Below, one piece after another: positions 7,189-62,211 of a stretch of DNA of 64,000 nt. The notes below the pieces were generated by a model that ran no database searches, was not told the DNA's origin, and worked only from the letters and a program-made list of their open reading frames with translations. The first letter of the stretch is position 1. Each line of letters begins with the position of its first letter. Origin of the DNA: Bdellovibrionales bacterium (GTDB taxonomy: Bacteria > Bdellovibrionota > Bdellovibrionia > Bdellovibrionales > UBA1609); contig JABSOQ010000003.1 of NCBI GenBank assembly GCA_013216195.1, positions 38,419-102,418 of the forward strand, read 5' to 3'. Both the position numbers and the translations under genes were made by a program.

Positions 7189-7200
7189 TCACAACCTCTT

Positions 7201-9603: not shown

Positions 9604-9669
9604 GGGACTGCAAAACCTCATTTGTTATTCAAATACTTGAAATAACTTGAGTTTTTACTTTGAAAAGCC

Positions 9670-9746
9670 TGTGGATAACCTCCCCGCTAAAATCCCAAAT
9701 TTGTGGATAAAAATGCATACACAGATTGTTAGCATTGTTTTCCACA
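9670..9746. promoter_or_regulatory. DnaA-box cluster (3 boxes)
   Basis: TGTGGATAA occurs twice (reverse complement of the consensus TTATCCACA). TTTTCCACA occurs once in the opposite orientation. Confidence 0.8.
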
Positions 9747-9766
9747 GATTTTTCAACAACCCCAAT

Positions 9767-23603: not shown

Positions 23604-23604
23604 T

Positions 23605-25131
<1,527 letters not shown>

Positions 25132-25138
25132 GACCTAA

Positions 25139-27434
<2,296 letters not shown>

Positions 27435-27448
27435 AAAGCGGTAGAAAC

Positions 27449-27922: not shown

Positions 27923-28278
27923 GTCGGCAAAACAATTATTACGAACTGTTTCACCCCAATTGAACTGGCATCTGTCTTTTCGAATCTCGATATTCAGATT
28001 TAGAATATCTGGCGTTGATCAACAAATATGACTTAGGCCTGAAAGTCTCTTAAACAGAGGCTTACAGACCTTTTGCTTCATTTTAGTACATTTTAGGGTC
28101 TTCATTTTTGATGAATTTATCTGCAACAGTTTCGAACCATTACCATGTCAAAATAAGAAATTAGAGTTCAATAATTTAAAACTGACTCAATACATAACAC
28201 CTAGGCTTAGGTCTTGATCAGCTACACCCGATCAATACTAGTAAGTGATCCTAGGCTGTACGTAAGAGGGTGTTAGGG

Positions 28279-28683
28279 ATGAGTCACAAAGCAAGCATTC
28301 TGTTGGTGGAAGACGAAGAGTCCATAAGGTTCATGCTCCAGACCAAATTAATGAAAGAAGGCTACAACGTTACAACAGCTGCTAACGGTCTTCATGGTTT
28401 GCAAGTCTTGAGGTCTGGTAAAGAGTTTGACTTAATAATCTGTGACCTGAAGATGCCCGGCAAAGATGGTATCGAATTGTTTTTAGAAATGAAAAGACTA
28501 GAGCTAGATACACCACTTGTTCTCCTCACAGGGTTTCCTGAAAAAAACAAAGTAATGAACGCCATTAAAAATGGTGTCAGGGATGTTCTGTTGAAGCCGA
28601 TACCCCATCAAGAACTGATGTCAAAGATAGAAGGGTATATAGCCGAACTTGAAGAGGATGTTTCCGATTCACTAGCGTCATGA
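28279..28683 (+). CDS. Single-domain response regulator (CheY-like receiver)
   Basis: SILLVEDEE, phospho-acceptor region DLIICDLKMPGKDG, and a conserved K in LLKP. The start is placed at the ATG at 28279; the ORF-track GTG is at 28270. Confidence 0.85.
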   Translation: MSHKASILLVEDEESIRFMLQTKLMKEGYNVTTAANGLHGLQVLRSGKEFDLIICDLKMPGKDGIELFLEMKRLELDTPLVLLTGFPEKNKVMNAIKNGVRDVLLKPIPHQELMSKIEGYIAELEEDVSDSLAS

Positions 28684-31949: not shown

Positions 31950-31991
31950 ATATTAAACGCCTTCGGCCCTTTTCTTCGCTATAATTTAGTC

Positions 31992-33203
31992 ATGCATCCA
32001 AGATCTTCGACTTTGAAAAGCCAAACTCTCCTAGCTGTCATTGCAGTTCTTTTCGGGTTTTATGCAGCTTCATTGAAGGCTCAAACCCCTAATATGGATG
32101 AGGAAATTGAGATTCTAGATAATGGTCTTGATACACCATCAGAGGCAGACGATAGTTTTGTTCCAGATGATACAGTTGAAGAGTTCCCGGAAGAGGATAA
32201 CGCAACCCTTCTAGGCGAAGGTGAAGATGGCAGTGAGCTAGGTCTCTCAGAGTTAGAGGGCGACTCAGGCGAGGCTGAAGGTGATGGTGTCATCTTTGAC
32301 GAACCGATACCTGATGAAGATGTCGGAGAAGAGCTCCTCTTAGACGAAGGTATTGAATCAGATTTGAACAATCAGATCTCAGAAGAAGATGGTACAGACA
32401 GCCAAGATCAAAGTCTTGATAACGAGTTACAAGGTAGTGAGTTTTTGCAAGAGACTTTGCCTACTTCTGACTCTGCAGTGCAACAGAATTACTCTGGCGA
32501 GGTGTTAGAGGGACCACCCAATGGACAAGGCGGCTGGGTAATCGTAGAACCTACTCCTCCCTTGGTATACAGCAAGGGTTCAAAGGTAAGTCTTCTTTCG
32601 TATAGAGAAAGAAGAACAGATTGGTCGATAATGGGGTCACTCGGGTACAGTTGGTTTTTGCCAACCAACTATGAGCCCACAGTTGGAGCGTTCGCAGAGT
32701 ACGCAGACCTGTATGGCGACAACCCAAAAGGGCCATTACTTGAAGTCCAATTCACCATGAAGAGAAATTATGGTTTTGGTAGCATAGGCTTAGATGCAGG
32801 TGCTGGAGTGTTCTCTGTAGAATCCAGAGTGAATGGCGTAGACTCCACCCTCGATATCAACATGTATCGACTGGGGCTAACGATCATACTAGACACACTC
32901 TTTAAAGAGCCCTGGGTTGCTCCTTATATAGCCGGCGGTGGTTATGTGATTCAAAAGAAAGAGGCTATCGATTCGACCTCAGATAATGAATCGACTCAGG
33001 TTGCCCCTTATTATGCTTTTGGTTTTTTGTTCCAACTGGATTGGATCGACTCCAAGACTGCCTTAGGTGCTTTTTCTGAAATCGGCCTAGAAAACACCTA
33101 CCTATTTGCTGAGGGCAGACAGCTTATTGCATCTTCAGCCGAAGCTGACTCTGACTTCAGTACCGATATTTTTGCAACGGCAGGCTTTCGAGTCGAACTC
33201 TAA
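31992..33203 (+). CDS. Secreted protein: acidic disordered N-region plus putative outer-membrane beta-barrel C-domain
   Basis: The start is placed at the ATG at 31992 (MHPRSSTLKSQTLLAVIAVLFGFYAASLKAQ signal). About 150 aa are D/E-rich low complexity. The C-terminal ~220 aa show alternating hydrophobic/aromatic strand patterns and end FATAGFRVEL. Confidence 0.45.
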   Translation: MHPRSSTLKSQTLLAVIAVLFGFYAASLKAQTPNMDEEIEILDNGLDTPSEADDSFVPDDTVEEFPEEDNATLLGEGEDGSELGLSELEGDSGEAEGDGVIFDEPIPDEDVGEELLLDEGIESDLNNQISEEDGTDSQDQSLDNELQGSEFLQETLPTSDSAVQQNYSGEVLEGPPNGQGGWVIVEPTPPLVYSKGSKVSLLSYRERRTDWSIMGSLGYSWFLPTNYEPTVGAFAEYADLYGDNPKGPLLEVQFTMKRNYGFGSIGLDAGAGVFSVESRVNGVDSTLDINMYRLGLTIILDTLFKEPWVAPYIAGGGYVIQKKEAIDSTSDNESTQVAPYYAFGFLFQLDWIDSKTALGAFSEIGLENTYLFAEGRQLIASSAEADSDFSTDIFATAGFRVEL

Positions 33204-36746: not shown

Positions 36747-37001
36747 TGCTCCACTGTTTCTATCAGAAATATTAGGGCTTTAATGTATCGCGTTACAAAG
36801 TGTTCGGTAAAATTGTGGCCCTTTTCAACGGTTCGTTTCGAATGATGCCCTAGGTGCTCGAAGCCTTCAATCTGCAACTTCAAATCGGTGAAAATTCTCG
36901 TTGCTTATCGGGGCTAAAAACCGTTCTTATCTCTTGGTTTTACGGATAGGCGCTTGTATATTGTGGCGATTTCCAAAACAGCACATAGATGGAGTCTCAA
37001 C

Positions 37002-37373
37002 ATGACTGAGCTGATACCCGTTTTTGCCCTTACGGGTTTTGTAATTCTATTTGGCCTTGCGCTCGTTTTTGCAACCAGCCTTCTAGGCCCAAAAACCAAA
37101 CAATCAAAGGTGAAACAGCTCGCCTACGAGTGTGGCTTAGAAGGCGAAGGCGCTGATTCAACCAAAGTGCCTGTTAAATTTTACCTGACAGCCATTTTAT
37201 TCATTCTTTTCGATATCGAAATTATCTTCATGTACCCGTGGGCGCTGGCTTACAAAGACTTCATAGCGACAGGCAGAGGCCTTTTTATTTTTTCATCAAT
37301 GGCCGTTTTTCTGGCCATCTTCATCTTTGGTTTGTTTTGGGAGATTCGTTCCAAAGCATTGGAGTGGGAGTAA
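37002..37373 (+). CDS. nuoA: NADH-quinone oxidoreductase subunit A
   Basis: Contains YECGLEG...KFYLTAILFILFDIEIIFMYPWA. The start is placed at the ATG at 37002 (MTELIP). Confidence 0.9.
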   Translation: MTELIPVFALTGFVILFGLALVFATSLLGPKTKQSKVKQLAYECGLEGEGADSTKVPVKFYLTAILFILFDIEIIFMYPWALAYKDFIATGRGLFIFSSMAVFLAIFIFGLFWEIRSKALEWE

Positions 37374-37376
37374 TTC

Positions 37377-38570
37377 ATGGGCGTCGATTTATTTGAGATA
37401 ACAGTAAATCTGGTAAAAATGATTTTCATCTTCGTGATGATGGTAAACGCTGTACCTCTGTTGGTTTGGGTAGAGAGGAGAGGGTCTGCATTCATTCAAA
37501 ACAGATATGGGCCGAACCGTGTTGGTCCTTTGGGCTTGGTTCAACTTCTTGCAGATGCCGTAAAGTTTATCTTTAAAGAAGAGTTCGTTCCTGGAAAGGG
37601 CCATAGGCTGGTTTTTTATCTAGCACCAGTGGTCGCATTGATTCCAGGTGCTTTGGCCTTTGCCGCAATTCCTCTCTCTATGCCAATTGAATTGGGTGAA
37701 TTTTCGCAAATACCTCTTGGGCTATTTACTATCGATCTTGGCGAAACTTATGGTCCTTACCGTTTCGCTTTTCAGGGTTATGAAATCGGAATCGGGATCG
37801 TCTTTGTGTTGGGTGTTTCTTCTCTAGCTGCCTATGCCCTTCTTATGGCGGGTTGGGGCTCTGCCAATAAATACTCTCTTTACGGTGCTCTAAGAGCTTC
37901 GGCGCAAACTATTAGCTATGAATTGGCTCTAGGCCTATCGCTTGTGGGCATTTTGCTTCTTTTTAACACTTTCAACTTTAAAGAAATCGTTGAGATTCAA
38001 AGCCAGGCGCTCACGTTCTCTTTTCTTGGCTCACAGATGACTGTGCCTTATCTGCCGAACTGGGGCATTATCTATCAGCCAGTAGGAGCCATTATCTTCT
38101 TTGCAGCTATGTTTGCTGAAACAAACAGGCTGCCTTTCGATTTGCCTGAAGCTGAAGCCGAATTGGTTGCTGGCTATCATACAGAGTATGGTGGCATCAA
38201 AATGAACATGTTCTACATTGGTGAATATGGTCACATGTTAGTTGCCTCTGCACTAATGGTGACCTTTTACTTTGGCGGCTACACACTTTACCCGTTCTTT
38301 ACGCCCGAAACAGTGAATCAGTTTTGGTCTGAGACAATGGGGTTGACGGGCAATCCTGTGGCTCTTCTGTCATCTCTTTCGTTGCACTTGGTGTTTATGG
38401 TTAAGTTGGTGATCTTCTTGTGGGTTTTTATTCATGTTCGATGGACTCTTCCACGTTTTAGATACGATCAACTTATGGACCTAGGCTGGAAGACCATGTT
38501 GCCTTGGGCTTTGGCCAATACAATTCTTACCGCCGTGGTCATTTTGATCATGAGAGCAGCTTGGAGTTAA
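37377..38570 (+). CDS. nuoH: NADH-quinone oxidoreductase subunit H
   Basis: 397 aa. Contains VWVERRGSAFIQNRYGPNRVGPLGLVQLLADAVKF and ETNRLPFDLPEAEAELVAGYHTEYGG. Confidence 0.95.
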   Translation: MGVDLFEITVNLVKMIFIFVMMVNAVPLLVWVERRGSAFIQNRYGPNRVGPLGLVQLLADAVKFIFKEEFVPGKGHRLVFYLAPVVALIPGALAFAAIPLSMPIELGEFSQIPLGLFTIDLGETYGPYRFAFQGYEIGIGIVFVLGVSSLAAYALLMAGWGSANKYSLYGALRASAQTISYELALGLSLVGILLLFNTFNFKEIVEIQSQALTFSFLGSQMTVPYLPNWGIIYQPVGAIIFFAAMFAETNRLPFDLPEAEAELVAGYHTEYGGIKMNMFYIGEYGHMLVASALMVTFYFGGYTLYPFFTPETVNQFWSETMGLTGNPVALLSSLSLHLVFMVKLVIFLWVFIHVRWTLPRFRYDQLMDLGWKTMLPWALANTILTAVVILIMRAAWS

Positions 38571-38574
38571 TTAG

Positions 38575-39108
38575 ATGTTAGGAGCGGCAATACCATTTTA
38601 CATACTATCGTTTCTGGTTCTATTTTTTGCTTATAAAACCATTACCTCACCAAACCCAATTCACTGTGCTCTGCATCTTGCGATCACCATGATCAACCTG
38701 GCCTTCATTTTCTTCGGCTTGAATTCTCCATTTATTGGTGGTGTTCAGTTGGTCGTGTATGCTGGAGCGGTGATGGTTCTTTTCGTCATGGTTCTGATGC
38801 TCTTTGACCTAAAGACCGAGGTTCGAGCCTTTTCAAGAGGTTTGTTTTCAAGCTTTTTAAAGGTTGCGTCTTCAGGCTTTCTGGCGGGCATCTTGATCGT
38901 CGGCGTGTTGATGTCTACAGATATGCTCGATGTAACTTCAGATAGTGTTGGCGTGGGTGTTAAGGCGACTTCTTCTACTGACATAGCCTTGTTGTTGTTT
39001 AACCAATATGTTTTTGCATTTGAGGTACTCGGTCTTCTTCTGCTTTTAGTGGCTGTTGGTGCTGTCGCTGTTTCTCGAATTCCAGGAGGTACTCATGCCA
39101 ATGACTGA
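38575..39108 (+). CDS. nuoJ: NADH-quinone oxidoreductase subunit J
   Basis: 177-aa hydrophobic protein. Contains GGVQLVVYAGAVMVLFVMVLML. Confidence 0.85.
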   Translation: MLGAAIPFYILSFLVLFFAYKTITSPNPIHCALHLAITMINLAFIFFGLNSPFIGGVQLVVYAGAVMVLFVMVLMLFDLKTEVRAFSRGLFSSFLKVASSGFLAGILIVGVLMSTDMLDVTSDSVGVGVKATSSTDIALLLFNQYVFAFEVLGLLLLLVAVGAVAVSRIPGGTHAND

Positions 39109-39421
39109 GGCTTTTCTTAATGTAGGTTTGAACCACTATCTTATACTTTCTGCACTTTTGTTTACCATGGGAATGATTGGCGTTCTTATGAGAAAGAACG
39201 TGATTGTGATCCTTATGGGTATTGAATTGATGTTGAACGCTGTGAACTTGTCGTTCATTTCATTCTCGTCTTACTCAGGTAATTTAAATGGTCAGATTAT
39301 GGTGTTTTTCGTAATGACAATTGCTGCCGCAGAAGCTGCTGTTGGTTTGGCTCTCGCTGTTGCGATTTATAAACGCTATAAAGAAATCAATATTCGCTTT
39401 TTCGAACAACTCAGAGGATAG
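39095..39421 (+). CDS. nuoK: NADH-quinone oxidoreductase subunit K
   Basis: Contains GIELMLNAVNL...AAAEAAVGLAL. The AGGAGG Shine-Dalgarno lies 5 nt upstream of the ATG at 39095. Confidence 0.9.
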   Translation: MPMTEAFLNVGLNHYLILSALLFTMGMIGVLMRKNVIVILMGIELMLNAVNLSFISFSSYSGNLNGQIMVFFVMTIAAAEAAVGLALAVAIYKRYKEINIRFFEQLRG

Positions 39422-39430
39422 GCTCAATAA

Positions 39431-41365
39431 ATGAACGAACAGCTCTTACTCGGATTACTCGTCGTCCTTCCCTTCTTGGGCTTTTTATTTAACGGTATTC
39501 GGTTTACCAGCAAGAACTACAAGCTGGCCGGAACAGTTGCCAGCACCGCCTCGGGTCTGTGCTTTCTTATCTCATTGACCTTGGTTGCCAAGCTCATTGG
39601 AATGCCTGAGGGAGAGAGGGTTATAACATCCCACTTTTTTGACTGGTTTTTAGCTGGTGATTTTTCAGTCTCGGCATCCTTTCTGCTTGATCCTATCAAT
39701 GCGGTTATGATTTTGGTGATCACCGGAGTCGGAACACTCATTCATATCTTTTCGATCGGTTACATCTCTCATGACGAGAGACCATCAAAATATTTTGCCT
39801 ATTTAAACCTGTTCTTAATGAACATGTTAATTTTGGTCCTAGGTGACAACTTGCTAGTTATGTTTGTTGGCTGGGAGGGTGTTGGCCTTTGTAGTTATCT
39901 ACTGATTGGTTTCTGGTTTTCTGATCCTGAAAAAGCCGCAGCCGGCATGAAAGCCTTCATCACGAACAGAATTGGTGATGCTGGTTTCTTACTAGGTATA
40001 TTTATGTTGTTCCTGTCTTTCGGAACAGTAACTTTCTCTGAAATCGCCACACGGCTGCCAGAGACGGCAGAGATGATGTGGACTGGGCCCATCACTTTGG
40101 CCTGCTTGTTTCTCTTCATTGGCGCAACTGGTAAGTCGGCTCAGATTCCACTTTATGTATGGCTTCCTGATGCTATGGCCGGGCCAACTCCTGTCTCTGC
40201 TCTAATTCACGCAGCAACTATGGTGACTGCTGGTGTGTATATGATCGTGAGAATGAGTGATGTGTTTGTTCTGGCGCCACTGGTTATGAATGTCATTGCG
40301 ATAATCGGCGCACTGACCGCGTTGGGAGCGGCAACAATTGGCATGACCCAGTGGGATATCAAAAAGATTTTGGCCTACTCCACAGTTTCACAGCTTGGTT
40401 ACATGTTTTTGGCAGTAGGCGTAGGAGCCTTTATCCCGGCGATGTTTCACCTTATGACTCACGCCTTTTTTAAAGCCTTGATGTTTTTGGGTTCTGGTAG
40501 CGTGATTCATGCTATGGCTGATGAACAAGACGTAAGAAAGATGGGTGGCCTCAAAAAGTACATGCCAATTACTCATTTCACGTTCTTGTTAGGGTGGTTG
40601 GCAATTATAGGAGCGCCTCCTTTAGCTGGGTTCTTTAGCAAAGATGAAATTCTTTGGTACAGTTTTGCTAGTCCGGCAGGTCATTGGTCTCTTTGGGTTG
40701 CTGGTGTGATTGCGGCCGGTTGTACAGCTTTTTATATGACCCGTTTGATGTGTCTTACTTTCTGGGGTGAGAGCAGAGTGCCTAAAGAGGTGCACCCACA
40801 CGAGTCTCCTGTTTCAATGACTTTTCCGCTGATTGTGCTGGGTGTGTTGAGCGTTGTCGGTGGTTGGATAGGTATCCCTCATGTGCTTGGTGCAATCATT
40901 CCTGGGCACCCGCCAAATGTGCTTGAACACTGGTTGGAGCCAGTGGTTCGAATGCTAAAGCCAGAACACGCATCAGCTGCAGTTGAGTTTGCTCTGATGG
41001 GCATCTCTCTGTCAGTAGCTGGAATTAGCGCTTATTTTGCTTACGATTTCTATCTTGTTCACAAAGATCGGCCGACAATGGTTACCAAAAAGTTGGGTGG
41101 TCTCTATAGCCTGGTGTCTGACAAGTACCGCATCGATGAGTTTTACTTTGGCAGAATCATCAACCCATTGATCGATTTGAGTAAAGGTCTCTGGTTGTAT
41201 ATCGACATAAATTTTATCGACAAGATGACCTACCTTGCCTCTGATATGGTCAAGGGGTCAGGTCAATTTTTGCGCAGTCTACAAAACGGAAACCTTCAAC
41301 AATACGCCTTGTACATCTCACTTGGTGTTGTTGTGACCATTACATATATATTAATGGGGTCTTAA
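39431..41365 (+). CDS. nuoL: NADH-quinone oxidoreductase subunit L
   Basis: 644-aa antiporter-like subunit. Contains WEGVGLCSYLLIGFW and SALIHAATMVTAGVY. Confidence 0.95.
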   Translation: MNEQLLLGLLVVLPFLGFLFNGIRFTSKNYKLAGTVASTASGLCFLISLTLVAKLIGMPEGERVITSHFFDWFLAGDFSVSASFLLDPINAVMILVITGVGTLIHIFSIGYISHDERPSKYFAYLNLFLMNMLILVLGDNLLVMFVGWEGVGLCSYLLIGFWFSDPEKAAAGMKAFITNRIGDAGFLLGIFMLFLSFGTVTFSEIATRLPETAEMMWTGPITLACLFLFIGATGKSAQIPLYVWLPDAMAGPTPVSALIHAATMVTAGVYMIVRMSDVFVLAPLVMNVIAIIGALTALGAATIGMTQWDIKKILAYSTVSQLGYMFLAVGVGAFIPAMFHLMTHAFFKALMFLGSGSVIHAMADEQDVRKMGGLKKYMPITHFTFLLGWLAIIGAPPLAGFFSKDEILWYSFASPAGHWSLWVAGVIAAGCTAFYMTRLMCLTFWGESRVPKEVHPHESPVSMTFPLIVLGVLSVVGGWIGIPHVLGAIIPGHPPNVLEHWLEPVVRMLKPEHASAAVEFALMGISLSVAGISAYFAYDFYLVHKDRPTMVTKKLGGLYSLVSDKYRIDEFYFGRIINPLIDLSKGLWLYIDINFIDKMTYLASDMVKGSGQFLRSLQNGNLQQYALYISLGVVVTITYILMGS

Positions 41366-41366
41366 G

Positions 41367-42935
41367 ATGTTGTTGAGCTTATTGATTTTTCTACCACTGG
41401 TTTATGCCCTGATCGTAATGGCCTTACCTGCAAGATTTTCTCGGCCAGTTAGTTTGGCCCTTTCAGGTCTTCACTTTGTTTTCAGCTTAGTTCTTTTGGC
41501 TAGATTTGATGTGACAACTGCTGATTTGCAATTTGTCGAACAGATGGACTGGGTTAAGTCTTTTGGCATTAGTTACTTCGTAGGCATTGATGGCATTTCA
41601 CTTTGGCTGGTTATGCTCACCACTTTCCTAACACCCTTGACCATTTTGGGTAGCTGGACGGCGATAACAGACAAAGTTAAAGGCTTTCACGTCGCAATGT
41701 TGGCTCTAGAAGCTACTATGATCGGTACTTTTCTCGCGATGGACGCGGTTTTGTTTTACGTCTTTTTTGAGGCCTCACTGATTCCGATGTACTTTATGAT
41801 CGGTATTTGGGGTGGAGCTCGAAGAATTTATGCAACCGTTAAGTTTTTCATCTACACCATGTTCGGCTCGCTTTTCATGCTAGTGGCTCTTATCGCTTTG
41901 ATGTTCATGACTCAAGAGATGCTTGGTGGCCAGATGAGTGCAAGCATTCTAGATTTCTATAAGTTAGAGATCCCTTTTGTGGCTGGTCAATTTCTGAACT
42001 CGCAAACTCTACTTTTCTTTGCCTTTGCTCTGGCCTTCGCAATTAAAGTTCCGATGTTTCCATTTCATACTTGGTTGCCAGATGCTCACGTTGAGGCACC
42101 AACACCAGGTTCTGTTATCTTAGCTGGTGTGATGCTGAAGATGGGAACATACGGGTTCATGAGACTGGGTCTGCCTCTGTTTCCAGAAGCTGTTGAGTAC
42201 TGGTCGTGGTTGTTTATGTTACTAGCAGTAGTTGGCATCATCTACGGAGCTTTGGTTGCGATGGTTCAACCTGATATCAAAAAATTGGTAGCATATTCAT
42301 CTGTATCGCACATGGGCTACGTGGTTTTGGGTCTATTTGCCTTTAATGCCTATGGTCTTACAGGTGGGCTATATCAGATGTTAAATCACGGTATCAGCAC
42401 AGGTGCTCTGTTCCTAATGGTAGGGATGATCTACGAAAGAACACATTCTAGAGAAATTTCTCAGTATGGCGGGCTTGCGAAGGCTGCACCTTGGTACACA
42501 ATTCTGTTTGTCATTGTGACCATGTCTTCGATCGCGGTACCGATGACTAATGGTTTTATTGGTGAGTTTTTGATTCTTCTAGGTGGCTTCGAAGCCAACC
42601 CAATTTTCGGAGCGATGGCTGTTCTAGGTGTCGTTTTAGGTGCTTCTTACATGCTTTGGATGGTGAAAAGAGTGTTCTTTGGCGGAGAGGGTGAGATTGT
42701 CACCAAATATAAGTCGGCCGGGCTCGACCTCAATATTAGAGAAGCAGTAGTCATGGCTCCACTTATTGTTTTGATTTTTTGGATGGGTATCTTTCCTAAT
42801 CACTTTCTTAGAGGTTCAAAAGCAAGTCTCGAGCATCTCGAGAAGAATATGCGAACTTACGAGCTGGGTATTCACAACCCTTCTCAAAAGGACCAATCCG
42901 AGAAATATAGCATGGCTGAAGAAAGAGGCGAGTAA
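41367..42935 (+). CDS. nuoM: NADH-quinone oxidoreductase subunit M
   Basis: 522 aa. Contains KVPMFPFHTWLPDAHVEAPTPGSVILAGVMLKMGTYG. Confidence 0.95.
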   Translation: MLLSLLIFLPLVYALIVMALPARFSRPVSLALSGLHFVFSLVLLARFDVTTADLQFVEQMDWVKSFGISYFVGIDGISLWLVMLTTFLTPLTILGSWTAITDKVKGFHVAMLALEATMIGTFLAMDAVLFYVFFEASLIPMYFMIGIWGGARRIYATVKFFIYTMFGSLFMLVALIALMFMTQEMLGGQMSASILDFYKLEIPFVAGQFLNSQTLLFFAFALAFAIKVPMFPFHTWLPDAHVEAPTPGSVILAGVMLKMGTYGFMRLGLPLFPEAVEYWSWLFMLLAVVGIIYGALVAMVQPDIKKLVAYSSVSHMGYVVLGLFAFNAYGLTGGLYQMLNHGISTGALFLMVGMIYERTHSREISQYGGLAKAAPWYTILFVIVTMSSIAVPMTNGFIGEFLILLGGFEANPIFGAMAVLGVVLGASYMLWMVKRVFFGGEGEIVTKYKSAGLDLNIREAVVMAPLIVLIFWMGIFPNHFLRGSKASLEHLEKNMRTYELGIHNPSQKDQSEKYSMAEERGE

Positions 42936-44413
42936 TGAGCACGCAGTTTGAAATGTTAGATTTACTATTGGTTTCTCCAGCGATCGCCTTGTTTTTGGCT
43001 AGCTTGATCCCTTTGGCGATTAAAGTGTTAAGAGGCAATACTGAATCGAATTCGGTAGCTACCATTATGTACGGTTTGGTTGGTGTCGTTACAGCTATGG
43101 TTTTGACCTTAGCCAATTACGGAATCGACAAAGTCGCATTTCAAGGGGCTTTGAGGTTCGACGGTCTGTCTTTTTGGATGCAAATGGTTGTGTTGGTCGT
43201 GGCGGCCGTAACCTTGATTCTTTCTAGAGATAACCCAGCCACTAACAACAGATTGTTTTCAGAGTATGTATTCCTGCTTTTGAACTCTCTCGTCGGTATG
43301 ATGATCGTGGCTTGGTCAAACGATCTCATGAGTCTATTTATTGGTATCGAGACAATGTCTCTGTGCTTGTACATTTTGATTGCACTCTCATCAGAGCCGA
43401 GAAAGTCAAAAGAGGCGGCATTTAAGTATTTCGTATTAGGTAGTTTTGCCTCGGCTATCATGCTTTACGGCATTTCGTTTATCTACGGAACAGTAGGTTC
43501 TACTTATATTCAAGATATTACCCAGGTCTCAATACAGCTGATGAACACCAACCGACTGTTTTTGTTTGGGGTTGTGCTAACGATTCTCGGTTTGTGCTTT
43601 AAGGTCTCGGTGTTTCCGTTTCACTCATGGACACCAGATGTCTATCAGGGTGCACCGACCCCGCTTACTGCCTTTATGAGCACAGGTGTGAAGGCCGTTT
43701 CTTTAGCTTTCTTTTTGAGATTTATCGCGATGGAGGTCATCGTTTCAGAGAGAGCAATTTTGTTGATGAATGCCCTTGAGTGGTTGGCTGCCTTCACTAT
43801 TCTGGCAGGTAATATTGCGGCGATCATGCAAGATAACTTGAAGAGAATGTTGGCGTACTCAAGTGTTGCCCACTCTGGTTACGTTATGATGGGCATATTG
43901 GCTGCTGGTGTTGGTGGTGAGAGTATTTTGGGTGCCTCGGGCGTTGTTTTTTATATTGTCGCCTATACGATAATGACTTTGGGTGCCTTCGGTATTCTGG
44001 TTCTTTTTGAAAAGCGCGCTGAATCGAGTCTTGAAGTCAGCGATCTTAGCGGCTTAGGCGCAAGAAACCCTTGGGCTGCAGCTTGCATAACTATCTTTAT
44101 GTTGAGCTTGGCTGGTATTCCGCCGACGGTTGGGTTCTTTGGTAAGCTATTTATTTTCTCAGCAGCAGTGAAACAAGGCTTTTTCTGGTTGGCTGTGTGG
44201 GGTGTTATTGGTTCTGTGATCAGTGTCTATTACTATCTCAGACCCATTGTTACCATGTACATGCAGAACGATGAGGGTGCCAGTGTGCTTCAGACGAAAG
44301 GTCTGACTAGGTTGGCAATTTCCGTTTTGGCGATTTCAGTGATCGTATTCGGATTTATCGCCGAGAGCATTTATTCAACAGTTACTAGTGATTTGGCCTC
44401 TCTGTTCTTTTAA
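42935..44413 (+). CDS. nuoN: NADH-quinone oxidoreductase subunit N
   Basis: 492 aa. Contains FPFHSWTPDVYQGAPTPLTAFMSTGVK. TAATG overlap with nuoM. Confidence 0.93.
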   Translation: MSTQFEMLDLLLVSPAIALFLASLIPLAIKVLRGNTESNSVATIMYGLVGVVTAMVLTLANYGIDKVAFQGALRFDGLSFWMQMVVLVVAAVTLILSRDNPATNNRLFSEYVFLLLNSLVGMMIVAWSNDLMSLFIGIETMSLCLYILIALSSEPRKSKEAAFKYFVLGSFASAIMLYGISFIYGTVGSTYIQDITQVSIQLMNTNRLFLFGVVLTILGLCFKVSVFPFHSWTPDVYQGAPTPLTAFMSTGVKAVSLAFFLRFIAMEVIVSERAILLMNALEWLAAFTILAGNIAAIMQDNLKRMLAYSSVAHSGYVMMGILAAGVGGESILGASGVVFYIVAYTIMTLGAFGILVLFEKRAESSLEVSDLSGLGARNPWAAACITIFMLSLAGIPPTVGFFGKLFIFSAAVKQGFFWLAVWGVIGSVISVYYYLRPIVTMYMQNDEGASVLQTKGLTRLAISVLAISVIVFGFIAESIYSTVTSDLASLFF

Positions 44414-45836: not shown

Positions 45837-45993
45837 CTGTAGGCTGGAGGGGTGTTCAACTAGCTTGAATACTGGCCCAAAGTCGCTGTCAGAGCCAGAC
45901 AGAGGTCGAATTGGATAGTCTGACTACGCTTTTTCTTTACAGCTGGAGGGCAGACTGCAATGATTGACTAGTCAAATTGAGAGGGGATTGATT

Positions 45994-46536
45994 TTGACTA
46001 ACTGGCTAACCTTATCTGACTACTCAAAAAAATACGACGTTAGTGTGTCTACACTAAGACGACGTATCAAAGGCGAGAAAGCTGAGTATCAGTTCGAGGA
46101 TGGTAAGTATCTTTTGATTGATCGCCCACTTAATGAGCACAACCCGAACACCCAAAAAGTCTCTAACCACCACCAACCAGGCTCGGCCCCCTTCGCCCCC
46201 CCACAGGAAAGCCAAGGGGTTGCCGAAGTCTCAGGTTCGACGGTAGAGCAGACATCAAAGGTTGAGGTAGCCCAGCTTGAAAAACCCCAGGAAGAGGGTG
46301 GACAGTTTTGGGTAACCGTAAATGCAATGATGAATGAACTAAAAAAGGCATACAGCCTTATTCTTCAAGAAAAAGAAGAGCAAATTCTGCAGTTGAAAGA
46401 TGAGCACTCAGATTTGCGCACCCTCGTTAGGGTTCTCGAAGAAGAAAATAAGCGCTTAAAAAATATGATTGGTAATCCAAAGTCACTTGATACTTGGCTC
46501 GAAAGATACGAACAAACTGAGTCCAAAAAATGGTAA
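45994..46536 (+). CDS. HTH (MerR/excisionase-like) DNA-binding protein with disordered linker and C-terminal coiled coil
   Basis: The N-terminal WLTLSDYSKKYDVSVSTLRRRIKGEKAEYQFEDGKYLL resembles an HTH_17/MerR-type wing. A P/Q/S-rich linker is followed by a heptad-rich C-terminus (LILQEKEEQILQLKDEHSDLRTLVRVLEEENKRLKNMI). The start is placed at the TTG at 45994, 7 nt after GAGAGGGG. The ORF-track start is the TTG at 45964. Confidence 0.6.
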   Translation: MTNWLTLSDYSKKYDVSVSTLRRRIKGEKAEYQFEDGKYLLIDRPLNEHNPNTQKVSNHHQPGSAPFAPPQESQGVAEVSGSTVEQTSKVEVAQLEKPQEEGGQFWVTVNAMMNELKKAYSLILQEKEEQILQLKDEHSDLRTLVRVLEEENKRLKNMIGNPKSLDTWLERYEQTESKKW

Positions 46537-46855: not shown

Positions 46856-47353
46856 CTAGATCCAGCCTTTAGCTTTGGCCTTCTCAATTTCTTCTTTTTT
46901 CTTTCGAAAATTTTGTTCAATTGATCCCTGAGGATCTCTATCATAGAAAAAGGGCCCTATACCCGTATCTTTTTCTTCATGAGAAAAAAGCATTGCCCAA
47001 CCAAGATGCTCTGGAAAAACAAGATAGTCTGAATCATTGAGTGTTGTAGGCTTTGCTTTCACTAGAAAGACACTACCTTCTCGATAGTCCCACTTTGAGG
47101 GGTCCGGCTGCTTTCGTGGGTGATGGTGATGGTCTTCAACGACATACAGTCTACTTGCAGTTTCTCGATTGTAATAGGTACCCTGAGCCTCGGCACCCGT
47201 GCGGACTTGGATTCCGTTTAAAGTTTTGCAATCCCAAAGATAGTAGCAACCGACACTCTTTTTGAGATCTACAAAGTGATGAAACCAAAAGCCAAGGCAT
47301 TCAGAAATTTCTTTATCATTTAAGACCTTCAAAACCTTGTCTGCATCGACCAT
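46856..47353 (-). CDS. Hypothetical cytoplasmic protein (165 aa)
   Basis: The ORF has a plausible ATG and no recognisable catalytic motif. It contains an HHHH run and the segment FPEHLGWAMLFSHEEKDTGIGPFFYD, which is loosely reminiscent of DUF4275-type proteins (from memory, unverified). Confidence 0.45.
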   Translation of the reverse strand: MVDADKVLKVLNDKEISECLGFWFHHFVDLKKSVGCYYLWDCKTLNGIQVRTGAEAQGTYYNRETASRLYVVEDHHHHPRKQPDPSKWDYREGSVFLVKAKPTTLNDSDYLVFPEHLGWAMLFSHEEKDTGIGPFFYDRDPQGSIEQNFRKKKEEIEKAKAKGWI

Positions 47354-47465: not shown

Positions 47466-49892
47466 CTAAGCCGCTGTTGATGAGGCCGCAGCTGGTAACT
47501 TACCTTTCTTGCCTCCTTTGGCGCCAGATGCCTTTTTGGTTTGAGCACCTGACTTATCGAAGGCTAGAGCGAAAACTTCGTCAAGGTTTTCAACAAAGAC
47601 GAAGTTTAGCTTCTGTTTGAATTCCTCTGGAATATCTTGAACATCTTTCTGGTTAGCAACCGGTAGAATCACAGTGTTGATCCCATAAGTGAGAGCTGCC
47701 AGAGCCTTTTCTTTGATACCACCAACCGGCAGTACTCTACCAGAAAGGGTGATTTCACCAGTCATTGCGATATCTTTTCTAACAGGTGTGTCTGTCATCA
47801 AGCTAATCATAGTGGTAGCCATTGTCACACCAGCCGACGGTCCATCTTTTGGTATTGCCCCAGCAGGTAAGTGAACATGAACCTCATTCTTCTGGAACCA
47901 GTCTTCTTCAATACCAAGCTCCTCATATCGAGCTCTAGCGTAAGACATCGCCGCCTGTGCTGATTCTTTCATCACATCGCCAAGTTGACCAGTAAGAGTA
48001 AGCCCACCTTTACCGTTCATCTTAAGAGCTTCTACATAAAGAACCTCACCGCCCGCTTGAGTCCAAGCCAAACCGGTAGTTATGCCGACCTGGTTCTCTT
48101 TAAGACGCTCGTCTTTTAAGAATCTCGGTGCACCAAGTAGCTCATTAACTACTGAATCTGTTACAACAACTTTCTCAGTGTGACCTGTAACTAATTTCTT
48201 AGCTACTTTTCTGCATACAGAGCCAATTTCTCGCTCAAGGTTACGAAGACCAGCCTCTTTCGTGTAGTGCGAAATCAGGTAAGCCAGACCTTCATCGGTG
48301 AATTCGATTTGCTCATCTGTCACACCGTTTTGGTCTTTTTGTCTTTGCACGAGGTGCTTTTTAGCAATGAGTACTTTGTCATTGTTAGTGTAACCAGAGA
48401 TCTGAATGGTCTCCATTCTGTCTCTCAGTGCCGGCGGTACGTTTTCGTACACGTTTGCTGTGGCAATGAACAGTACGTTACTCAAATCGAAATCTACGTT
48501 CAGGTAGTTATCTCTGAAAGTCGCATTTTGCTCAGGATCAAGAACCTCTAGCATAGCTGCACTTGGATCACCTCTAAAGTCAGAGCCAAGCTTGTCAATT
48601 TCATCCAAAACTACCACTGGGTTGTTCGTTTTAACTTGTTTAAGGGCCTGAACAACTTTTCCTGGCATAGCGCCAACATAAGTTCTTCTGTGACCACGAA
48701 TCTCAGCCTCGTCTTTTACACCACCAAGTGCGATTCTGAAGTACTCTCTACCCATGGCTTTCGCAATCGATCTACCAAGTGAAGTTTTACCAACACCTGG
48801 AGGTCCAACAAAGCACAAGATAGGCCCTTTCATATCTTTATCTTTAATCTTACGAACTGCTAAGAACTCAAGAATTCTGTCTTTTACCTTCTCAAGATCG
48901 TAGTGGTCTTCATCAAGAATCTTTTGAGCATTTTCGAGCTCAAGTGAATCTTCTGTAGACTTGTTCCAAGGCAAATCAGTCATCCAATCGAGATAGGTAC
49001 GAATCATAGATGCTTCACTAGCATCAGGGTGCATTCTCTCAAGTCTGTTAAACTGCTTAATGGCCTCAGTTTGCACATCTTCTGGCATGCCGGCGTTCAT
49101 GATCTTGTTACGTAGCTCATCCATCTCTTCAGACTTTGAATCACTTTCGCCAAGCTCATTCTTTATAGCGCGCATTTGCTCGCGTAAGAAATACTCTTTT
49201 TGAGATTTAGACATTTCGTCTTTTGCCGTGCTTCTGATCTTCGCTTGCATTTGAAGCAGATCAAGTTCTTTAACTAGAATTTCATTTACCAACTCTAGAC
49301 GATCTTTAGGATCATGAGTTTCAAGAACCTTTTGGCAATCAGAAACTTTAAGAACTAAGTTACTTGCAATCAAGTCAGCTAATCGACCTGGCTCACTTAC
49401 ATCATCAAGAACAAGTAAGATGTCAGGTGAGAGCCCATTGCCAAGAGCGATGATCTTTTCTAGTAGCTCTTTTGCATTTCGAATCAATGCTTCTTTTTCA
49501 ACAACAGGAACTTCGACCGTTGACTGCTCAAGTTTTTTAACTTTTACTTCGAAATTCGGAGAGGTTTGCTTGTATTCTAGGATCTCGCCTTTGGCTTCAC
49601 CCTGAATCAAGATTTTAACTCTTCCGTCAGAGAGTTTTCTCATTCGAATGATTGTGGCAACAGTTCCGGTCTTGTAGATCGAATCTTTTGTTGGGTTCTC
49701 TTCAGTAATTTCTTTCTGAGAAGCCAAGAAAATGAGTCTGTTGCTTTTCGATAGAGCGTCTTCGACGGCCTTGATCGAGCTTTCTCTTCCTACGTACAAA
49801 GGAAGAATCATGTAAGGAAAAACCACAATGTCTCTCACTGGGAGAAGCGGTAGTGATTCTGGGATCTCAATCTTTTTATCTTCTGTAGTCAT
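47466..49892 (-). CDS. lon: ATP-dependent Lon protease
   Basis: Walker [10 protein letters not shown] and the catalytic Ser motif [11 protein letters not shown]. The start is placed at the ATG at 49892 ([21 protein letters not shown]), with a GGAGG SD upstream. The ORF-track extension to 50036 looks non-coding. Confidence 0.95.
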
Positions 49893-50074
49893 GTTGCCTC
49901 CGCTACTTTGGCGGGAAAAATCAGTCTTTGTCTCTAAGAACTGATCGGCCACGCCACGAAGGACTTTAAGTAAAAGTAGCCTTGTAGAGGTCTTGAAAAA
50001 ACAGCCTTGAGTAGGGGCCGCATGCGGCATAGGCAAGACCTATGTCCGCAATTGCACCCTCTACAAGCAAAACT

Positions 50075-50452
50075 CTACCTTGCACGTTGAATTTTGGCTG
50101 ACTCGCGTATCTCTGCACCCTCAATACTTAGACGAGTCCAAGGTATAGCCAGAAGTCTATCGTGCTCAATGTACTCTTCGGTTTCTTCGCACAAGCCATA
50201 TTGGCCGTTTTCTATTCTAGCCAGAGCAAACTCAATCTCAATCAGCTGAGTTCGAATGCGGCCTTGCGAAGCATGCATTTGATTTTCTTGTAACAGAGAA
50301 GAAGACATGTCGATCTCATCACCTTTGAACTCTCGCTCACTAAATAGCGACTTTTGTGCGTTAAACTGATTGAGCAGTTCAGCCTTTTGCTGAAGTAGTT
50401 TGTCATGGCACTGAGAGATGAGTTCTTTAGTAGGTTTGCTTGTTACTGACAT
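50075..50452 (-). CDS. DksA/TraR-family protein lacking the Cys4 zinc finger
   Basis: 125 aa. A coiled-coil N-region is followed by ALARIENGQYGLCEETEEYIEHDRLLAIPWTRLSIEGAE. This aligns with the DksA C-terminal pattern G.YG.C..CG..I...RL.A.P....C..C, but three of the four Cys positions are replaced. Confidence 0.6.
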   Translation of the reverse strand: MSVTSKPTKELISQCHDKLLQQKAELLNQFNAQKSLFSEREFKGDEIDMSSSLLQENQMHASQGRIRTQLIEIEFALARIENGQYGLCEETEEYIEHDRLLAIPWTRLSIEGAEIRESAKIQRAR

Positions 50453-50786
50453 GGCGACCCCCTTCTGGGTTGTTTGAGATGAAACGTACAGCGTTTAGCC
50501 TGAAACGCAGGCTAAGAGCCTCAGCCTTAAGGCTCTTACCTAGACATCCTGCTAGGTGCCTGTACTGACGCTTGTTTAAGTCAATCCGGTTAATCAGATG
50601 TGAAATTGATATGAATTTATTCTTAAATTGCCTGAAACCTGTATTGTTTCGATCTGAGACACTTATCCGAACATAAAAACATATATATAGAGGGCTTACC
50701 GGGAAGGCTTCATGACCAGTGGCTATACAGTGTCTACACACTGACCAGCTCAAATAGACACATGTCTTACAAGAGCTCAAAATTGC

Positions 50787-50802
50787 TGGCACCAGCGTTG
50801 CA
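50787..50802 (+). promoter_or_regulatory. Sigma54 (RpoN) -24/-12 promoter
   Basis: TGGCAC-cagcg-TTGCA matches the TGGCAC-N5-TTGCW consensus exactly. It lies 31 nt upstream of the ATG at 50833, with the GGGGAGG SD at 50820-50826. Confidence 0.75.
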
Positions 50803-50832
50803 AATTAAAAGGATCACCTGGGGAGGCAGTTT

Positions 50833-52392
50833 ATGTATTTCTTTGCTCACAGTCGTTTATCGACTGTCGTAACGACCATAACAGTAGGTATTCTTTTAGT
50901 CGGGTTTCAGAATTGCGGACAAATGAACGCGATAAGCCCTCAAGCTACACAAGAAAAAAGCTCTTCTACCAATATAGTGAGAATTTCGAAAGCAACCAGT
51001 GCTCAGAGAGGCGACACTGTAAATCTAGAAGTGACCGGTGGAGATCTCGCTTCGAATGGGATAATCAACCAATCAGGTATGTCAGTGCGTTGGTTTTACC
51101 AACCAACTCTAGATGACGAGAGAACGGCTTTATCAAATGCTAGCATGACTCACACGATTCAGTTTATGGAGGCTACAGATGCAGGCCTCTACAGTGCTGT
51201 CGTTGAAGCCAATGAAGGTACAGTAGAAGTTGCCTTTCAAGTCGCATTTCTCGAGCCTGTTGAGCCTCCTGTAGAAACACCACTAGGTACTTACAATGGC
51301 TACTTTTTAGATTTATCTGGCGCAGAGTCACGATTCATTCAAACACAAAACATCTCTAGACCTGCAGCCTTAGAGAATTGTCAGCAGAACTCTGATTTAA
51401 ACCCAACTAAAGGTATCTACTGTACCTGGAACCAAGAAGAGATCTTCAGGCGTGCCGCTCCTCAACCAGCTCTCGGCACATATGAAGGTTTTATGGGTAA
51501 TTCGCTTGCTACTGTATCTCGTTTCATCAGAACAGAGAATATTTCACAGGCAGATGCATTGGCTAATTGTCAGCTGAATGCCAACAACAACCCGAGCAGA
51601 GCTGTTCGATGCAACTGGAACGGCGATTTACTTTGGGAGCGCGAAGGGCCTAACCCTGCTGCGACTTATGAAGGCTTTATGGGTGACTCTCTCGCCACGG
51701 TTTCAAGATTCATTCGTACAGAAAATATTACTCAAGCAGATGCACTCGCGAACTGTGAGCTGAACGCTGGCAATAACCCTACTAAGGCTGTGCGCTGTAT
51801 GTGGAACAACGATCAAATTTTTGAGCGTGAAGCACCTGGCCCATTGGCTGCATACGAGGGTTTCATGGGCAACTCAATGAACAGTTTGTCCCGATTCATT
51901 CGTACAGCAAGCATTACCAGAGCGGACGCCCTGGCGAACTGTCAGTTAAACGCAAGAAACAACCCAACAAAGGCCATTCGTTGTAACTGGAACGAAGATC
52001 TTCTTTGGGAGAGAGATAACGCTCAATCATCAAATGCTGACGGCACTTATCGAGGCTTTATGGGTGATACTGTTGAAGAATCATCTCGCTTCATCCTGAC
52101 ACGAAACATTTCGCGCGCAGATGCCTTGGCAAACTGTAAGCGAAATGGAGAAAACAACCCTGCGCGAGCTATTCGCTGCACCTTCAATGGCGTTGAAATC
52201 TATAAGCGAGAGGCTCTTGGCACCTATAGAGGCTACATGGGTAACAAGATACAAAATGTCAGGCGCTTTATCTTAACCCGCAAGATTACGAGACGGGCGG
52301 CCTTACAGAACTGCAGACTGAATGCACGTAACAACCCAAACAAGGCTGTGCGATGCACTTGGAATGGTTCTCAAATTTTTAGAAGGCCATAA
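50833..52392 (+). CDS. Secreted protein: signal/lipoprotein-like N-terminus, Ig-like domain, and six tandem ~60-aa two-cysteine modules of unknown family
   Basis: 519 aa. The hydrophobic N-terminus ends ...LLVGFQNCGQ. Residues ~45-140 show an Ig I-set-like pattern (GDTVNLEVTGG...VRWFY...DAGLYSAVVEANEGTVEVAFQV). Residues 151-519 are six repeats with consensus GTYxGFMG..(5)..SRFIxTxNIsxADALANCxLNAxNNPxKAVRCxWNG..(3-4)..ER. Confidence 0.8.
   Translation: MYFFAHSRLSTVVTTITVGILLVGFQNCGQMNAISPQATQEKSSSTNIVRISKATSAQRGDTVNLEVTGGDLASNGIINQSGMSVRWFYQPTLDDERTALSNASMTHTIQFMEATDAGLYSAVVEANEGTVEVAFQVAFLEPVEPPVETPLGTYNGYFLDLSGAESRFIQTQNISRPAALENCQQNSDLNPTKGIYCTWNQEEIFRRAAPQPALGTYEGFMGNSLATVSRFIRTENISQADALANCQLNANNNPSRAVRCNWNGDLLWEREGPNPAATYEGFMGDSLATVSRFIRTENITQADALANCELNAGNNPTKAVRCMWNNDQIFEREAPGPLAAYEGFMGNSMNSLSRFIRTASITRADALANCQLNARNNPTKAIRCNWNEDLLWERDNAQSSNADGTYRGFMGDTVEESSRFILTRNISRADALANCKRNGENNPARAIRCTFNGVEIYKREALGTYRGYMGNKIQNVRRFILTRKITRRAALQNCRLNARNNPNKAVRCTWNGSQIFRRP
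51283..52389 (+). repeat. Six in-frame tandem coding repeats (63, 63, 62, 65, 58 and 58 codons)
   Basis: Repeat boundaries were derived from the translation. Protein identity between units is high, while many synonymous codon positions differ between units. Confidence 0.85.
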
Positions 52393-52424: not shown

Positions 52425-52466
52425 AAAAGCCTCGAGAGTCAGGATGTCCTTGAGGCTTTTTCTTTT
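52425..52466 (+). terminator. Rho-independent terminator after the repeat-protein gene
   Basis: AAAAGCCTC (52425-52433) pairs with GAGGCTTTT (52452-52460). An inner AGGA/TCCT stem is present. TTTTTCTTTT follows. Confidence 0.7.
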
Positions 52467-52644
52467 GTACCTTGAAGCTCACTCTGCAAAGAACTCAGGG
52501 CTCTCAACCATTGCTATAAACCATTGATAATAATCAATTTTTCCGCCCATTAGTTCTGTCTAAGTATCATCCAAGCCTGAAATTTGGTGCTATTTTGGTC
52601 ACGCCAGTTCTAGGTTATGGTGAGGCAATCAAGGAGGCCGAAAG

Positions 52645-53103
52645 ATGAAATCTTTAATGCTCATTATTGCTGTTGTGTTTTCTAGCTACAGCCATTCGTC
52701 TCAAATGGTTTTAACAGAGTACCGGGTGAACCCAGATAGTGAGCGATGCCTTCCCACCGAGTTTATTTTTTTATACATAACTCCAGACGACAGCACATTT
52801 GAGCTTCATAGCCGAGTCGGTGAGACAATAGTCACTTACCCAGACTACACCTTTAATAGAATCAACGAGGGAGAATTCGAGACTCAGGTGGCTTCATCAA
52901 CTGGTGAGTCACTAACAGTTACTGAAAACAACACCTATGTTTTCGATGAGAGCGGATCAAAGTTTGTTAGCTCAAGAATGCTTTATGGCGATCTCTATCA
53001 GAGCGTGATCATGGAGTTTGAGGGCGATAGCCTCACTCTGAAGTTAGGCGGCAACTCAGTCGAAGACCGAAGTTGCAGCTACACTGCAACTCCACAAGAC
53101 TGA
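52645..53103 (+). CDS. Small secreted protein, unknown function
   Basis: 152 aa. Signal peptide MKSLMLIIAVVFSSYSHS. The mature part is beta-rich with two Cys residues. An AAGGAGG SD lies upstream. Confidence 0.55.
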   Translation: MKSLMLIIAVVFSSYSHSSQMVLTEYRVNPDSERCLPTEFIFLYITPDDSTFELHSRVGETIVTYPDYTFNRINEGEFETQVASSTGESLTVTENNTYVFDESGSKFVSSRMLYGDLYQSVIMEFEGDSLTLKLGGNSVEDRSCSYTATPQD

Positions 53104-61371: not shown

Positions 61372-62211
61372 TTAGTAATCAATTCCCTCTTCAACCATCA
61401 TGCACTCTTGTGTTCGTTGCGGAATGGCCTCTCCATCTCGGGTGCGAGTCAGCACGGCACTGTCTTTGTGCCAAGCAGGTAAGAGATCGGGCTTCTCTGT
61501 AAAGTGTTCTGGAAAGTAATAGTGTGCGGTCTGAGGGCTGAAAGCATTATTAGCAGGGTTTTGAACTCGAGTGACACTGCTATCGGCCATATTCCAAACC
61601 GACTGGTTTTGAGGACACAAAAAATCGGCAAAATGCCCTTGGCCACCACCCCACGAATTACTTCTGCCATAACTATTGAAGGTTGTTGCAAACTGATCTC
61701 GTTTGAACAAAACAGCGCGTACCGGGTCACTGACACCCTCTCCAGTTCTGCGTTGAATTCTATTTTGAATAACGCTCGCTGAGTAGTAGGCGATTGTTTC
61801 AAACTCCGATGAGCAAGGTTGCCCTGCAGAAATAGTTTCGGTGTAAACCACTCGGCGTTGAAGCTCTTCATTAGAGAGACCAAAGTAATTAAAGACATCA
61901 ATGTAGCCATTGTATTTGTTCGAGTTCTTCTGGTTCGCAAACATGGTCTCGAGAATGTGATCTAAAGCATTTATAGTCGCGCCATTGTGAACAAAGGTCG
62001 TGTCTTCATCAATGCAAAGAAGTCGATCACCTGAGGCAGCCACAACGGGCGACTGCCCAGCTGCTTGTGGTGCAGGGGCAGTGGTCGGATCAGGTCTCTT
62101 TCTTGGTCGAACGCGATCTAGCCGAGTTTCATTAGCAACTGCACAGGCGCAAAAAACAAAAGCAAGGAGGGGCGCCAGAGACAGAGTCATAGATATTCTT
62201 CCCATCGGCAT
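61372..62211 (-). CDS. Secreted protein, possibly SleB/Hydrolase_2-like cell-wall hydrolase
   Basis: A signal peptide is followed by a P/A-rich linker. The segment VVYTETISAGQPC...TIAYYSASVIQNRIQRR...VRAVLFKRDQFATTF resembles the E...A.V..NR...V....QF pattern of SleB-type hydrolases (from memory, unverified). Confidence 0.4.
   Translation of the reverse strand: MPMGRISMTLSLAPLLAFVFCACAVANETRLDRVRPRKRPDPTTAPAPQAAGQSPVVAASGDRLLCIDEDTTFVHNGATINALDHILETMFANQKNSNKYNGYIDVFNYFGLSNEELQRRVVYTETISAGQPCSSEFETIAYYSASVIQNRIQRRTGEGVSDPVRAVLFKRDQFATTFNSYGRSNSWGGGQGHFADFLCPQNQSVWNMADSSVTRVQNPANNAFSPQTAHYYFPEHFTEKPDLLPAWHKDSAVLTRTRDGEAIPQRTQECMMVEEGIDY

Follow-up and report, generated by a model that had tools for sequence, protein, structure and literature searches.

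The window, that is, the whole 64,000-nucleotide stretch of DNA analysed here, belongs to a MAG labelled 'Bdellovibrionales bacterium' at NCBI and was recognized through Pfam scans as the replication-origin region of the chromosome. These scans gave only housekeeping genes, namely gyrA, gyrB, recF, dnaN and dnaA (2278-11188, minus strand), yidC, mnmE, mnmG, parA and parB, atpFHAGDC, mfd, nuoA-H-J-K-L-M-N, lon (47466-50036, minus strand), dnaJ, grpE and a few others; the Pfam-based feature list also includes a jag-like gene, rsmG, a GH3 hydrolase and a patatin-like protein. The ATP synthase genes are found in two places, atpI-atpB (155-1234, minus strand) and atpF/F'-H-A-G-D-C (22034-27856, plus strand), about 21 kb apart on opposite strands and flanking the dnaA/origin region. 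The complex I genes also appear to be split, since the window (36954-44413) has nuoA directly followed by nuoH-J-K-L-M-N, and nuoCD-E-F-G-I adjoin the repeat gene described below in two orthologous loci (L001, 9080-13359; L004, 8848-12999); in all three lineages the repeat gene is located within a few kb of one nuo cluster. ORFs of 150-426 aa without a Pfam match lie at 52645-53103, 45964-46536 and 31923-33203 on the plus strand and at 46856-47353 and 61372-62211 on the minus strand.

The gene on which this analysis centres (50833-52392, plus strand) encodes a 519-aa lipoprotein-like repeat protein, identified by exact look-up as NQY99190.1 (HRT45_00805). No possible start codon occurs between the upstream in-frame stop and its ATG at 50833, and a Shine-Dalgarno sequence read from the DNA, GGGGAGG (50820-50826, plus strand), is located 6 nt before it. 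Downstream of the gene, an intrinsic terminator on the plus strand (52425-52467) consists of a 36-nt hairpin (52425-52460), beginning 33 nt after the stop codon, followed by the U-run UUUUUCUUUUG. The predicted fold has an energy of -17.1 kcal/mol with z = -2.75, and it was missed by a consensus terminator scan due to the loop limit of 8 nt used in that scan. As the terminator follows the gene directly and the next ORF starts at 52645, the transcription unit would be monocistronic. That next ORF, of 152 aa and just past the terminator, shows a signal-peptide-like start and an SD of its own (AAGGAGG), and is listed after the repeat gene together with an LppC/TPR lipoprotein, dnaJ, grpE, a radical-SAM enzyme and an M16 peptidase. 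No paralogues of the repeat gene were found within the window. Horizontal acquisition of the gene was considered and rejected, as the base composition around it is unremarkable.

On the other side, a gene for a 125-aa DksA/TraR-type zinc-finger protein (50075-50452, minus strand; Pfam zf-dskA_traR, E = 2.2e-06) is oriented divergently from the repeat gene, with which it has a 380-bp intergenic region in common. It is outside the transcription unit of the repeat gene and is absent among the neighbours of the orthologues. An ORF of 121 aa on the opposite strand (50427-50792) is almost certainly spurious, because the independent gene calls of L027 leave the space between the dksA-like and repeat genes empty. 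The L027 locus comes from essentially the same strain as the window and its promoter region is 100% identical, so it adds no independent evidence to the comparisons presented below. Two abutting perfect hairpins were detected in the same spacer at 50495-50538, TTAGCCTG-N5-CAGGCTAA and TAAGAGCCT-N8-AGGCTCTTA, in which AGCCT/AGGCT occurs five times, with no T-run after them on either strand. Relative to the start of the DksA/TraR-like gene this pair is placed 43-86 nt upstream, and relative to the predicted sigma-54 start approximately 275-320 nt upstream. A search of it against Rfam gave only a sub-threshold chance match; it may form a structure in the leader of the dksA-like gene or be the site of one of its regulators.

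The product of the repeat gene begins with an N-terminal hydrophobic signal helix ending in ...GFQNCG, followed by a linker, an all-beta domain (residues ~48-140) and six repeats (residues 152-519). Residues Q26 and C28 do not vary between the orthologues, and the FQNC signal helix can be taken as a probable lipoprotein-type signal. The repeat, with boundaries defined by an HMM, is 57 aa long and contains two invariant cysteines, and its six copies are encoded at 51286-52389 of the window. An AF2 model of a single repeat, generated with a repeat alignment of 52 sequences, showed a beta-beta-alpha-beta-beta arrangement with a pLDDT of 97.9, and the model of the full-length protein (pLDDT 80, pTM 0.27) was formed by a disordered linker, the all-beta domain and the six repeats arranged as beads on a string. 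The 57-aa repeat has no Pfam family and no sequence match in the PDB. Moreover, none of the matches obtained when it was compared with the PDB by Foldseek was significant, the best ones (E = 0.15, TM ~0.6) corresponding to small unrelated alpha/beta domains. Single or tandem copies of this repeat were found in Bdellovibrionales, in CPR phyla (Saccharibacteria, Kaiserbacteria, Peregrinibacteria and Paceibacterota), in Myxococcales and in Bradymonadia, and its partner domains in loci L008-L026 include TARSH_C, Ig-like and LCCL. From the paired cysteines and the signal peptide, we infer that the product is extracytoplasmic.

Sequence inspection of the intergenic region revealed TGGCACcagcgTTGCA (equivalent to TGGCACCAGCGTTGCA) at 50787-50802 on the plus strand, the same strand as the repeat-protein gene. 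It matches the sigma-54 (RpoN) consensus TGGCAC-N5-TTGCA in 11 of 11 positions, with a -24 element TGGCAC at 50787-50792 and a -12 element TTGCA at 50798-50802, both on the plus strand. The GG (50788-50789) and the GC (50800-50801) are separated by the canonical N10, which upholds the exact match and correct spacing reported in the initial annotation. A C precedes the motif, giving the YTGG form, and an A/T-rich stretch comes after it. Between the end of the motif and the ATG at 50833 there are 30 nt, which include the Shine-Dalgarno sequence, a placement that had also been proposed from the first reading of the DNA. According to the standard geometry of sigma-54 promoters, transcription is predicted to start at 50811-50815 on the plus strand, with +1 at about 50813, 12 nt past the C in the -12 element (50801), which would leave a 5' UTR of about 20 nt. 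The predicted 5' leader does not have an unusual fold (z = -0.54), and a search of the intergenic region and leader against Rfam gave a single sub-threshold snoRNA match that was taken as chance.

Exact copies of the motif were counted on both strands of the window and in dinucleotide-shuffled versions of it. The site at 50787-50802 is the only match in the 64 kb, with 0.05 expected, and an exact motif was present in 4 of 100 shuffled windows. When one mismatch was allowed, the same site was still the sole match (1.19 expected), and at two mismatches the window contained 10 matches vs 19 expected, that is, fewer, so it is not generally enriched for degenerate sites. The initial annotation had suggested scoring the window with a position weight matrix (PWM), and with a PWM that approximates the published consensus YTGGCACGrNNNTTGCW rather than reproducing a curated matrix, the promoter sequence CTGGCACcagcgTTGCAA (50786-50803, plus strand) scored 18.1 bits vs 13.6 for the runner-up, a gap of 4.5 bits. 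Comparison with the ORF map placed all other sites of at least 10 bits inside coding regions. The assertion that no other site of comparable quality exists in these 64 kb is thus borne out, both by the uniqueness of the match at up to one mismatch and by its top PWM score. A score of 18.1 bits was reached somewhere in 5 of 200 mononucleotide-shuffled windows. When the 150 nt preceding the gene were shuffled 3000 times, this score was never attained, and it was likewise absent from 850 other real 150-nt windows. As the rarity of the PWM score is by itself moderate, the argument for sigma-54 rests on the position of the site and on its conservation.

Conservation was analysed in true orthologues, for which a protein had to share the signal helix, an FQNC-type motif, the beta domain and the tandem repeats with the window protein. 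A scan of genome contigs gave 15 loci, among which only two Bdellovibrionales lineages hold true orthologues, and a scan of metagenome contigs for further ones produced only three distant single-domain matches. Relatives of the protein are few overall. The orthologues come from two other Bdellovibrionales MAG lineages and correspond to P0002 (loci L001-L003 and L007; isolate YZ09aB_3.4) and to P0005 plus a longer ORF in L006 (loci L004 and L006; isolate YZ14B_1.26), with 35-38% identity to the window protein. Upstream of these genes, and on their coding strand, we found CTGGTATtcaccTTGCAT in L001, L002, L003 and L007 (14.2 bits, 35 nt before the start) and CTGGTACggcagTTGCAT in L004 and L006 (18.4 bits, 38 nt before the start), compared to 18.1 bits and 30 nt for the window site, so that the distance from site to start is maintained within 8 nt across the three lineages. 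In each locus of about 13 kb this site has the best sigma-54 score, and when the 150 nt upstream were shuffled 3000 times for each, the observed score was never reached. Counterparts of the Shine-Dalgarno sequence (GGGGGA or GCGGGGA) are found at the same place.

The elements of the orthologues read CTGGTAT-N5-TTGCAT or CTGGTAC-N5-TTGCAT, and the spacing between GG and GC in L001 and L004 is the same as in the window. In L001, the -24 element has the variant TGGTAT, presumably the form present in nifH-type promoters. Conserved positions include the C/T-TGG, the A at -22, the TTGCA/T and a rigid spacing, and the five bases of the spacer differ completely. Beyond the element, no alignable sequence was detected when the upstream DNA of the orthologues was compared with that of the window. 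The neighbours of the orthologues (an ORF of 166-171 aa upstream and, downstream, an OMP beta-barrel gene, an ORF of 160-168 aa and nuoCD-E-F-G-I) have no homologues in the window either. The fact that the element has been kept while the protein, the neighbouring genes and the upstream DNA have diverged argues that its retention reflects selection, and it is on this basis that the window site is very probably a real sigma-54 promoter. That it would be dedicated to the repeat-protein gene, as first proposed, also agrees with its intergenic location on the right strand and at the right distance, with the terminator after the gene and with its conservation in the orthologues.

Such conservation does not extend to all the relatives of the protein. 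The more distant homologue P0004 (L024) is preceded by a weak site, GCGGCCCttcatTTGCTT, with 10.1 bits, and no sigma-54-like site was found upstream of P0003 (L005, from a Bdellovibrionaceae MAG, 28-30% identity) or of P0006 (L025), which indicates that this type of control is not universal in the family. Likewise, no sigma-54 site was detected upstream of the genes for CPR, Myxococcales and Bradymonadia proteins that share only the repeat and account for the rest of the 15 loci from the genome-contig scan. As judged from these upstream regions, sigma-54 control is a predicted feature of one orthologous group and not of the whole domain family. P0004 itself is 768 aa long, with extra Cys-rich N-terminal modules, and its gene adjoins one for a FliG_C-domain protein (L024 2727-3422, minus strand).

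Sigma-54 promoters need an AAA+ activator of the enhancer-binding protein (EBP) type, and the initial annotation had stressed that none is encoded nearby. The absence itself was corroborated. A six-frame regex search of the window found no EBP signatures (GAFTGA-type loop, EBP Walker A, ESELFGH), and no Sigma54_activat domain was detected by Pfam in any ORF of at least 250 aa or in most of the smaller ones. Around the orthologues, no EBP was found within 6 kb on either side. The window contains a response regulator (28270-28683, plus strand) that Pfam shows to be a bare receiver of 137 aa, in line with the lack of an AAA+ domain noted in the initial annotation, and a convergent gene for a PAS-HisKA-HATPase-REC hybrid histidine kinase (28730-30283, minus strand). 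As both lack an output or AAA+ domain, neither can by itself be the sigma-54 activator. The emphasis placed on this absence as a noteworthy property did not hold, however, because activators unlinked to their sigma-54 promoters are common, as in the NtrC and FleQ/FlrA regulons and among the Myxococcus EBPs, and the lack of a local EBP is thus no anomaly.

With respect to sites for such an activator, the region upstream of the window promoter contains an inverted repeat, GTGTCTA-N18-TAGACAC (50730-50761), at about -83 to -52 from the predicted start. It might speculatively be regarded as a candidate activator site or bending site; it is not conserved in L001, and repeats of the GAGAC/GTCTC type are present upstream in L004. 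A block TCAAAAyGAnACG..TA.AAA.TGG.C is common to L001 (5863-5890) and L004 (5859-5887). With the predicted starts of these loci as reference, it lies at about -114 to -86, which is the usual position of EBP sites. No clear counterpart of this block was found in the window, where only a TGG is present at the same distance. Apart from this block, repeat finding and alignment gave only inverted repeats specific to one lineage, and no upstream activator site convincingly common to all three lineages.

Regarding the sigma factor itself, no RpoN box was found in the 64-kb window by six-frame regex search. Among cultured relatives, Bdellovibrio bacteriovorus HD100 encodes the RpoN-like bd0843 (PMC3464611) and Bacteriovorax marinus SJ encodes rpoN (PMC3526173). 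The retention of the element in three lineages constitutes indirect evidence that would point to RpoN being present also in these organisms.

Several alternatives to a working sigma-54 promoter were considered. The motif could be a chance occurrence, with the gene being transcribed by sigma-70 from 50755-50783 or from another promoter in the 380-bp intergenic region. A weak sigma-70-like match, TAGACA-17-CAAAAT (50755-50783, plus strand), indeed abuts the motif and agrees with the consensus in 9 of 12 positions. Moreover, the shuffled windows cited above (4 of 100 for the exact motif, 5 of 200 for the PWM score) make a score of 18 bits in 128 kb of two-strand sequence only moderately unlikely. 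Nevertheless, sigma-70-like matches in this region amount to 3, vs 4.5 expected in shuffles, and by eye no counterpart of the match was seen at the same place upstream of the orthologues. The -24/-12 element, in contrast, is kept at the same position in two independent lineages, each with 0 of 3000 shuffles. Such positional conservation is not explained by chance, and coincidence combined with sigma-70 transcription is, in our opinion, very improbable. A second protein could also be responsible for the conservation, the CTGG-N-A...TTGCA pattern being in such a case the site of a different DNA-binding factor, for example a repressor or activator of a sigma-70 promoter. The motif of the window lies within an imperfect palindrome, GCTGGcaCCAGC, which is short and could be the site of a dimeric regulator, but this palindrome is missing from both L001 (ACTGGTATTCACC) and L004 (GCTGGTACGGCAG). 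Furthermore, the conserved positions (YTGG, A at -22, TTGCW and rigid spacing) are exactly those that define sigma-54 sites, whereas the N5 varies freely, so we regard binding by another protein as very improbable.

A different possibility is that sigma-54 does bind here and the site is mainly non-productive or regulatory, either as a poised complex that blocks sigma-70 or through titration of the holoenzyme, with no dedicated activator. The lack of an EBP gene and of a clear local activator site in the three lineages would fit such a role, as would the overlap of the weak sigma-70-like match with the region just upstream. On the other hand, the element is placed relative to the Shine-Dalgarno sequence and the start codon as a working promoter would be, and this placement is conserved in all three lineages, unlinked EBPs are established as common, and positive evidence for a non-productive site of this kind was not found. 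Hence, we assign to it a very low probability.

In any case, the data as a whole give us high confidence in a genuine sigma-54 (RpoN)-dependent promoter that would drive, in an uncultured Bdellovibrionales bacterium, a single gene transcribed as a monocistronic unit and coding for a lipoprotein-like repeat protein that is exported. For this promoter, the following mechanism can be proposed. The sigma-54 RNA polymerase would bind to the -24 GG and the -12 GC at 50787-50802, forming a stable closed complex unable to open alone, a step deduced from the sequence and from the established biochemistry of sigma-54. An AAA+ EBP encoded elsewhere in the genome would bind about 50-150 bp upstream (50650-50770), loop to the promoter and open the DNA by ATP hydrolysis. 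Transcription would then start near 50813, and the 519-codon ORF would be translated from a leader of about 20 nt with a strong SD, the transcript ending at the hairpin and U-run at 52425-52467; of these elements, the SD, the ORF and the terminator are seen directly in the DNA. As a result, an envelope protein would be expressed under tight on/off control gated by a signal. Since the same type of control would operate in at least two other Bdellovibrionales lineages, sigma-54 dependence would belong to this gene family rather than being an accident peculiar to one genome.

The classical sigma-54 (-24/-12) promoters include those of Klebsiella nifH, E. coli glnAp2 and Pseudomonas putida Pu. The promoter described here is like them in its GG-N10-GC arrangement within YTGGCAC-N5-TTGCW, about 12 nt before the predicted start, in the A/T-rich sequence downstream and in the presumed requirement for an AAA+ activator. 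Unlike their nitrogen, flagellar or catabolic targets, the gene controlled in this case would be that of an exported repeat protein, and no activator, upstream activator site or IHF site was found for it. Among the former delta-proteobacteria, whose sigma-54 regulons have many unlinked EBPs, it also resembles the Nla/EBP network of Myxococcus xanthus, with a single envelope or developmental target, an EBP located elsewhere and a predatory lineage, although in contrast to that system the genomes of Bdellovibrionales are small.

Within the order, a parallel is found in the attack-phase surface proteins of Bdellovibrio bacteriovorus that depend on FliA (sigma-28), in which an alternative sigma factor also controls cell-surface proteins (PMC3627812). 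The sigma factor and the promoter architecture of the window are, however, different from those of the FliA system, and by eye no FliA-type element was seen upstream of the repeat gene. The promoters active in the attack phase of B. bacteriovorus were mostly attributed to FliA, and sigma-54 was not discussed (Karunker et al. 2013, PMC3627812). In two reports on Bdellovibrio (PMC3464611, PMC3627812), bd0843 appears only among the predicted sigma factors, and promoters of the sigma-54 type are not described.

The promoter itself is ordinary, since promoters of the sigma-54 type have been worked out in depth and it is normal for their activators to be encoded elsewhere. Its presence hints that the repeat lipoprotein may be expressed only on a specific signal, which can guide the choice of conditions under which it is studied. 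The site could also seed a lineage-specific matrix with which the sigma-54 regulon of Bdellovibrionales and its activator could be searched for through whole-genome scans. A bolder and rather unlikely reading is that the gene encodes an undescribed envelope or surface protein, built from a new disulfide-bonded module that binds the envelope of prey or host, and that its sigma-54 switch is fired by an unlinked EBP in response to a prey-derived or life-cycle signal. The binding part of this proposal derives from the fact that both the predatory Bdellovibrionales and the episymbiotic CPR bacteria live attached to other bacteria, and hence the module they share might bind to the envelope of prey or host. 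If this reading were true, the gene and its promoter would offer an initial way into the sigma-54 regulon of the Bdellovibrionales, which is still almost entirely uncharted.
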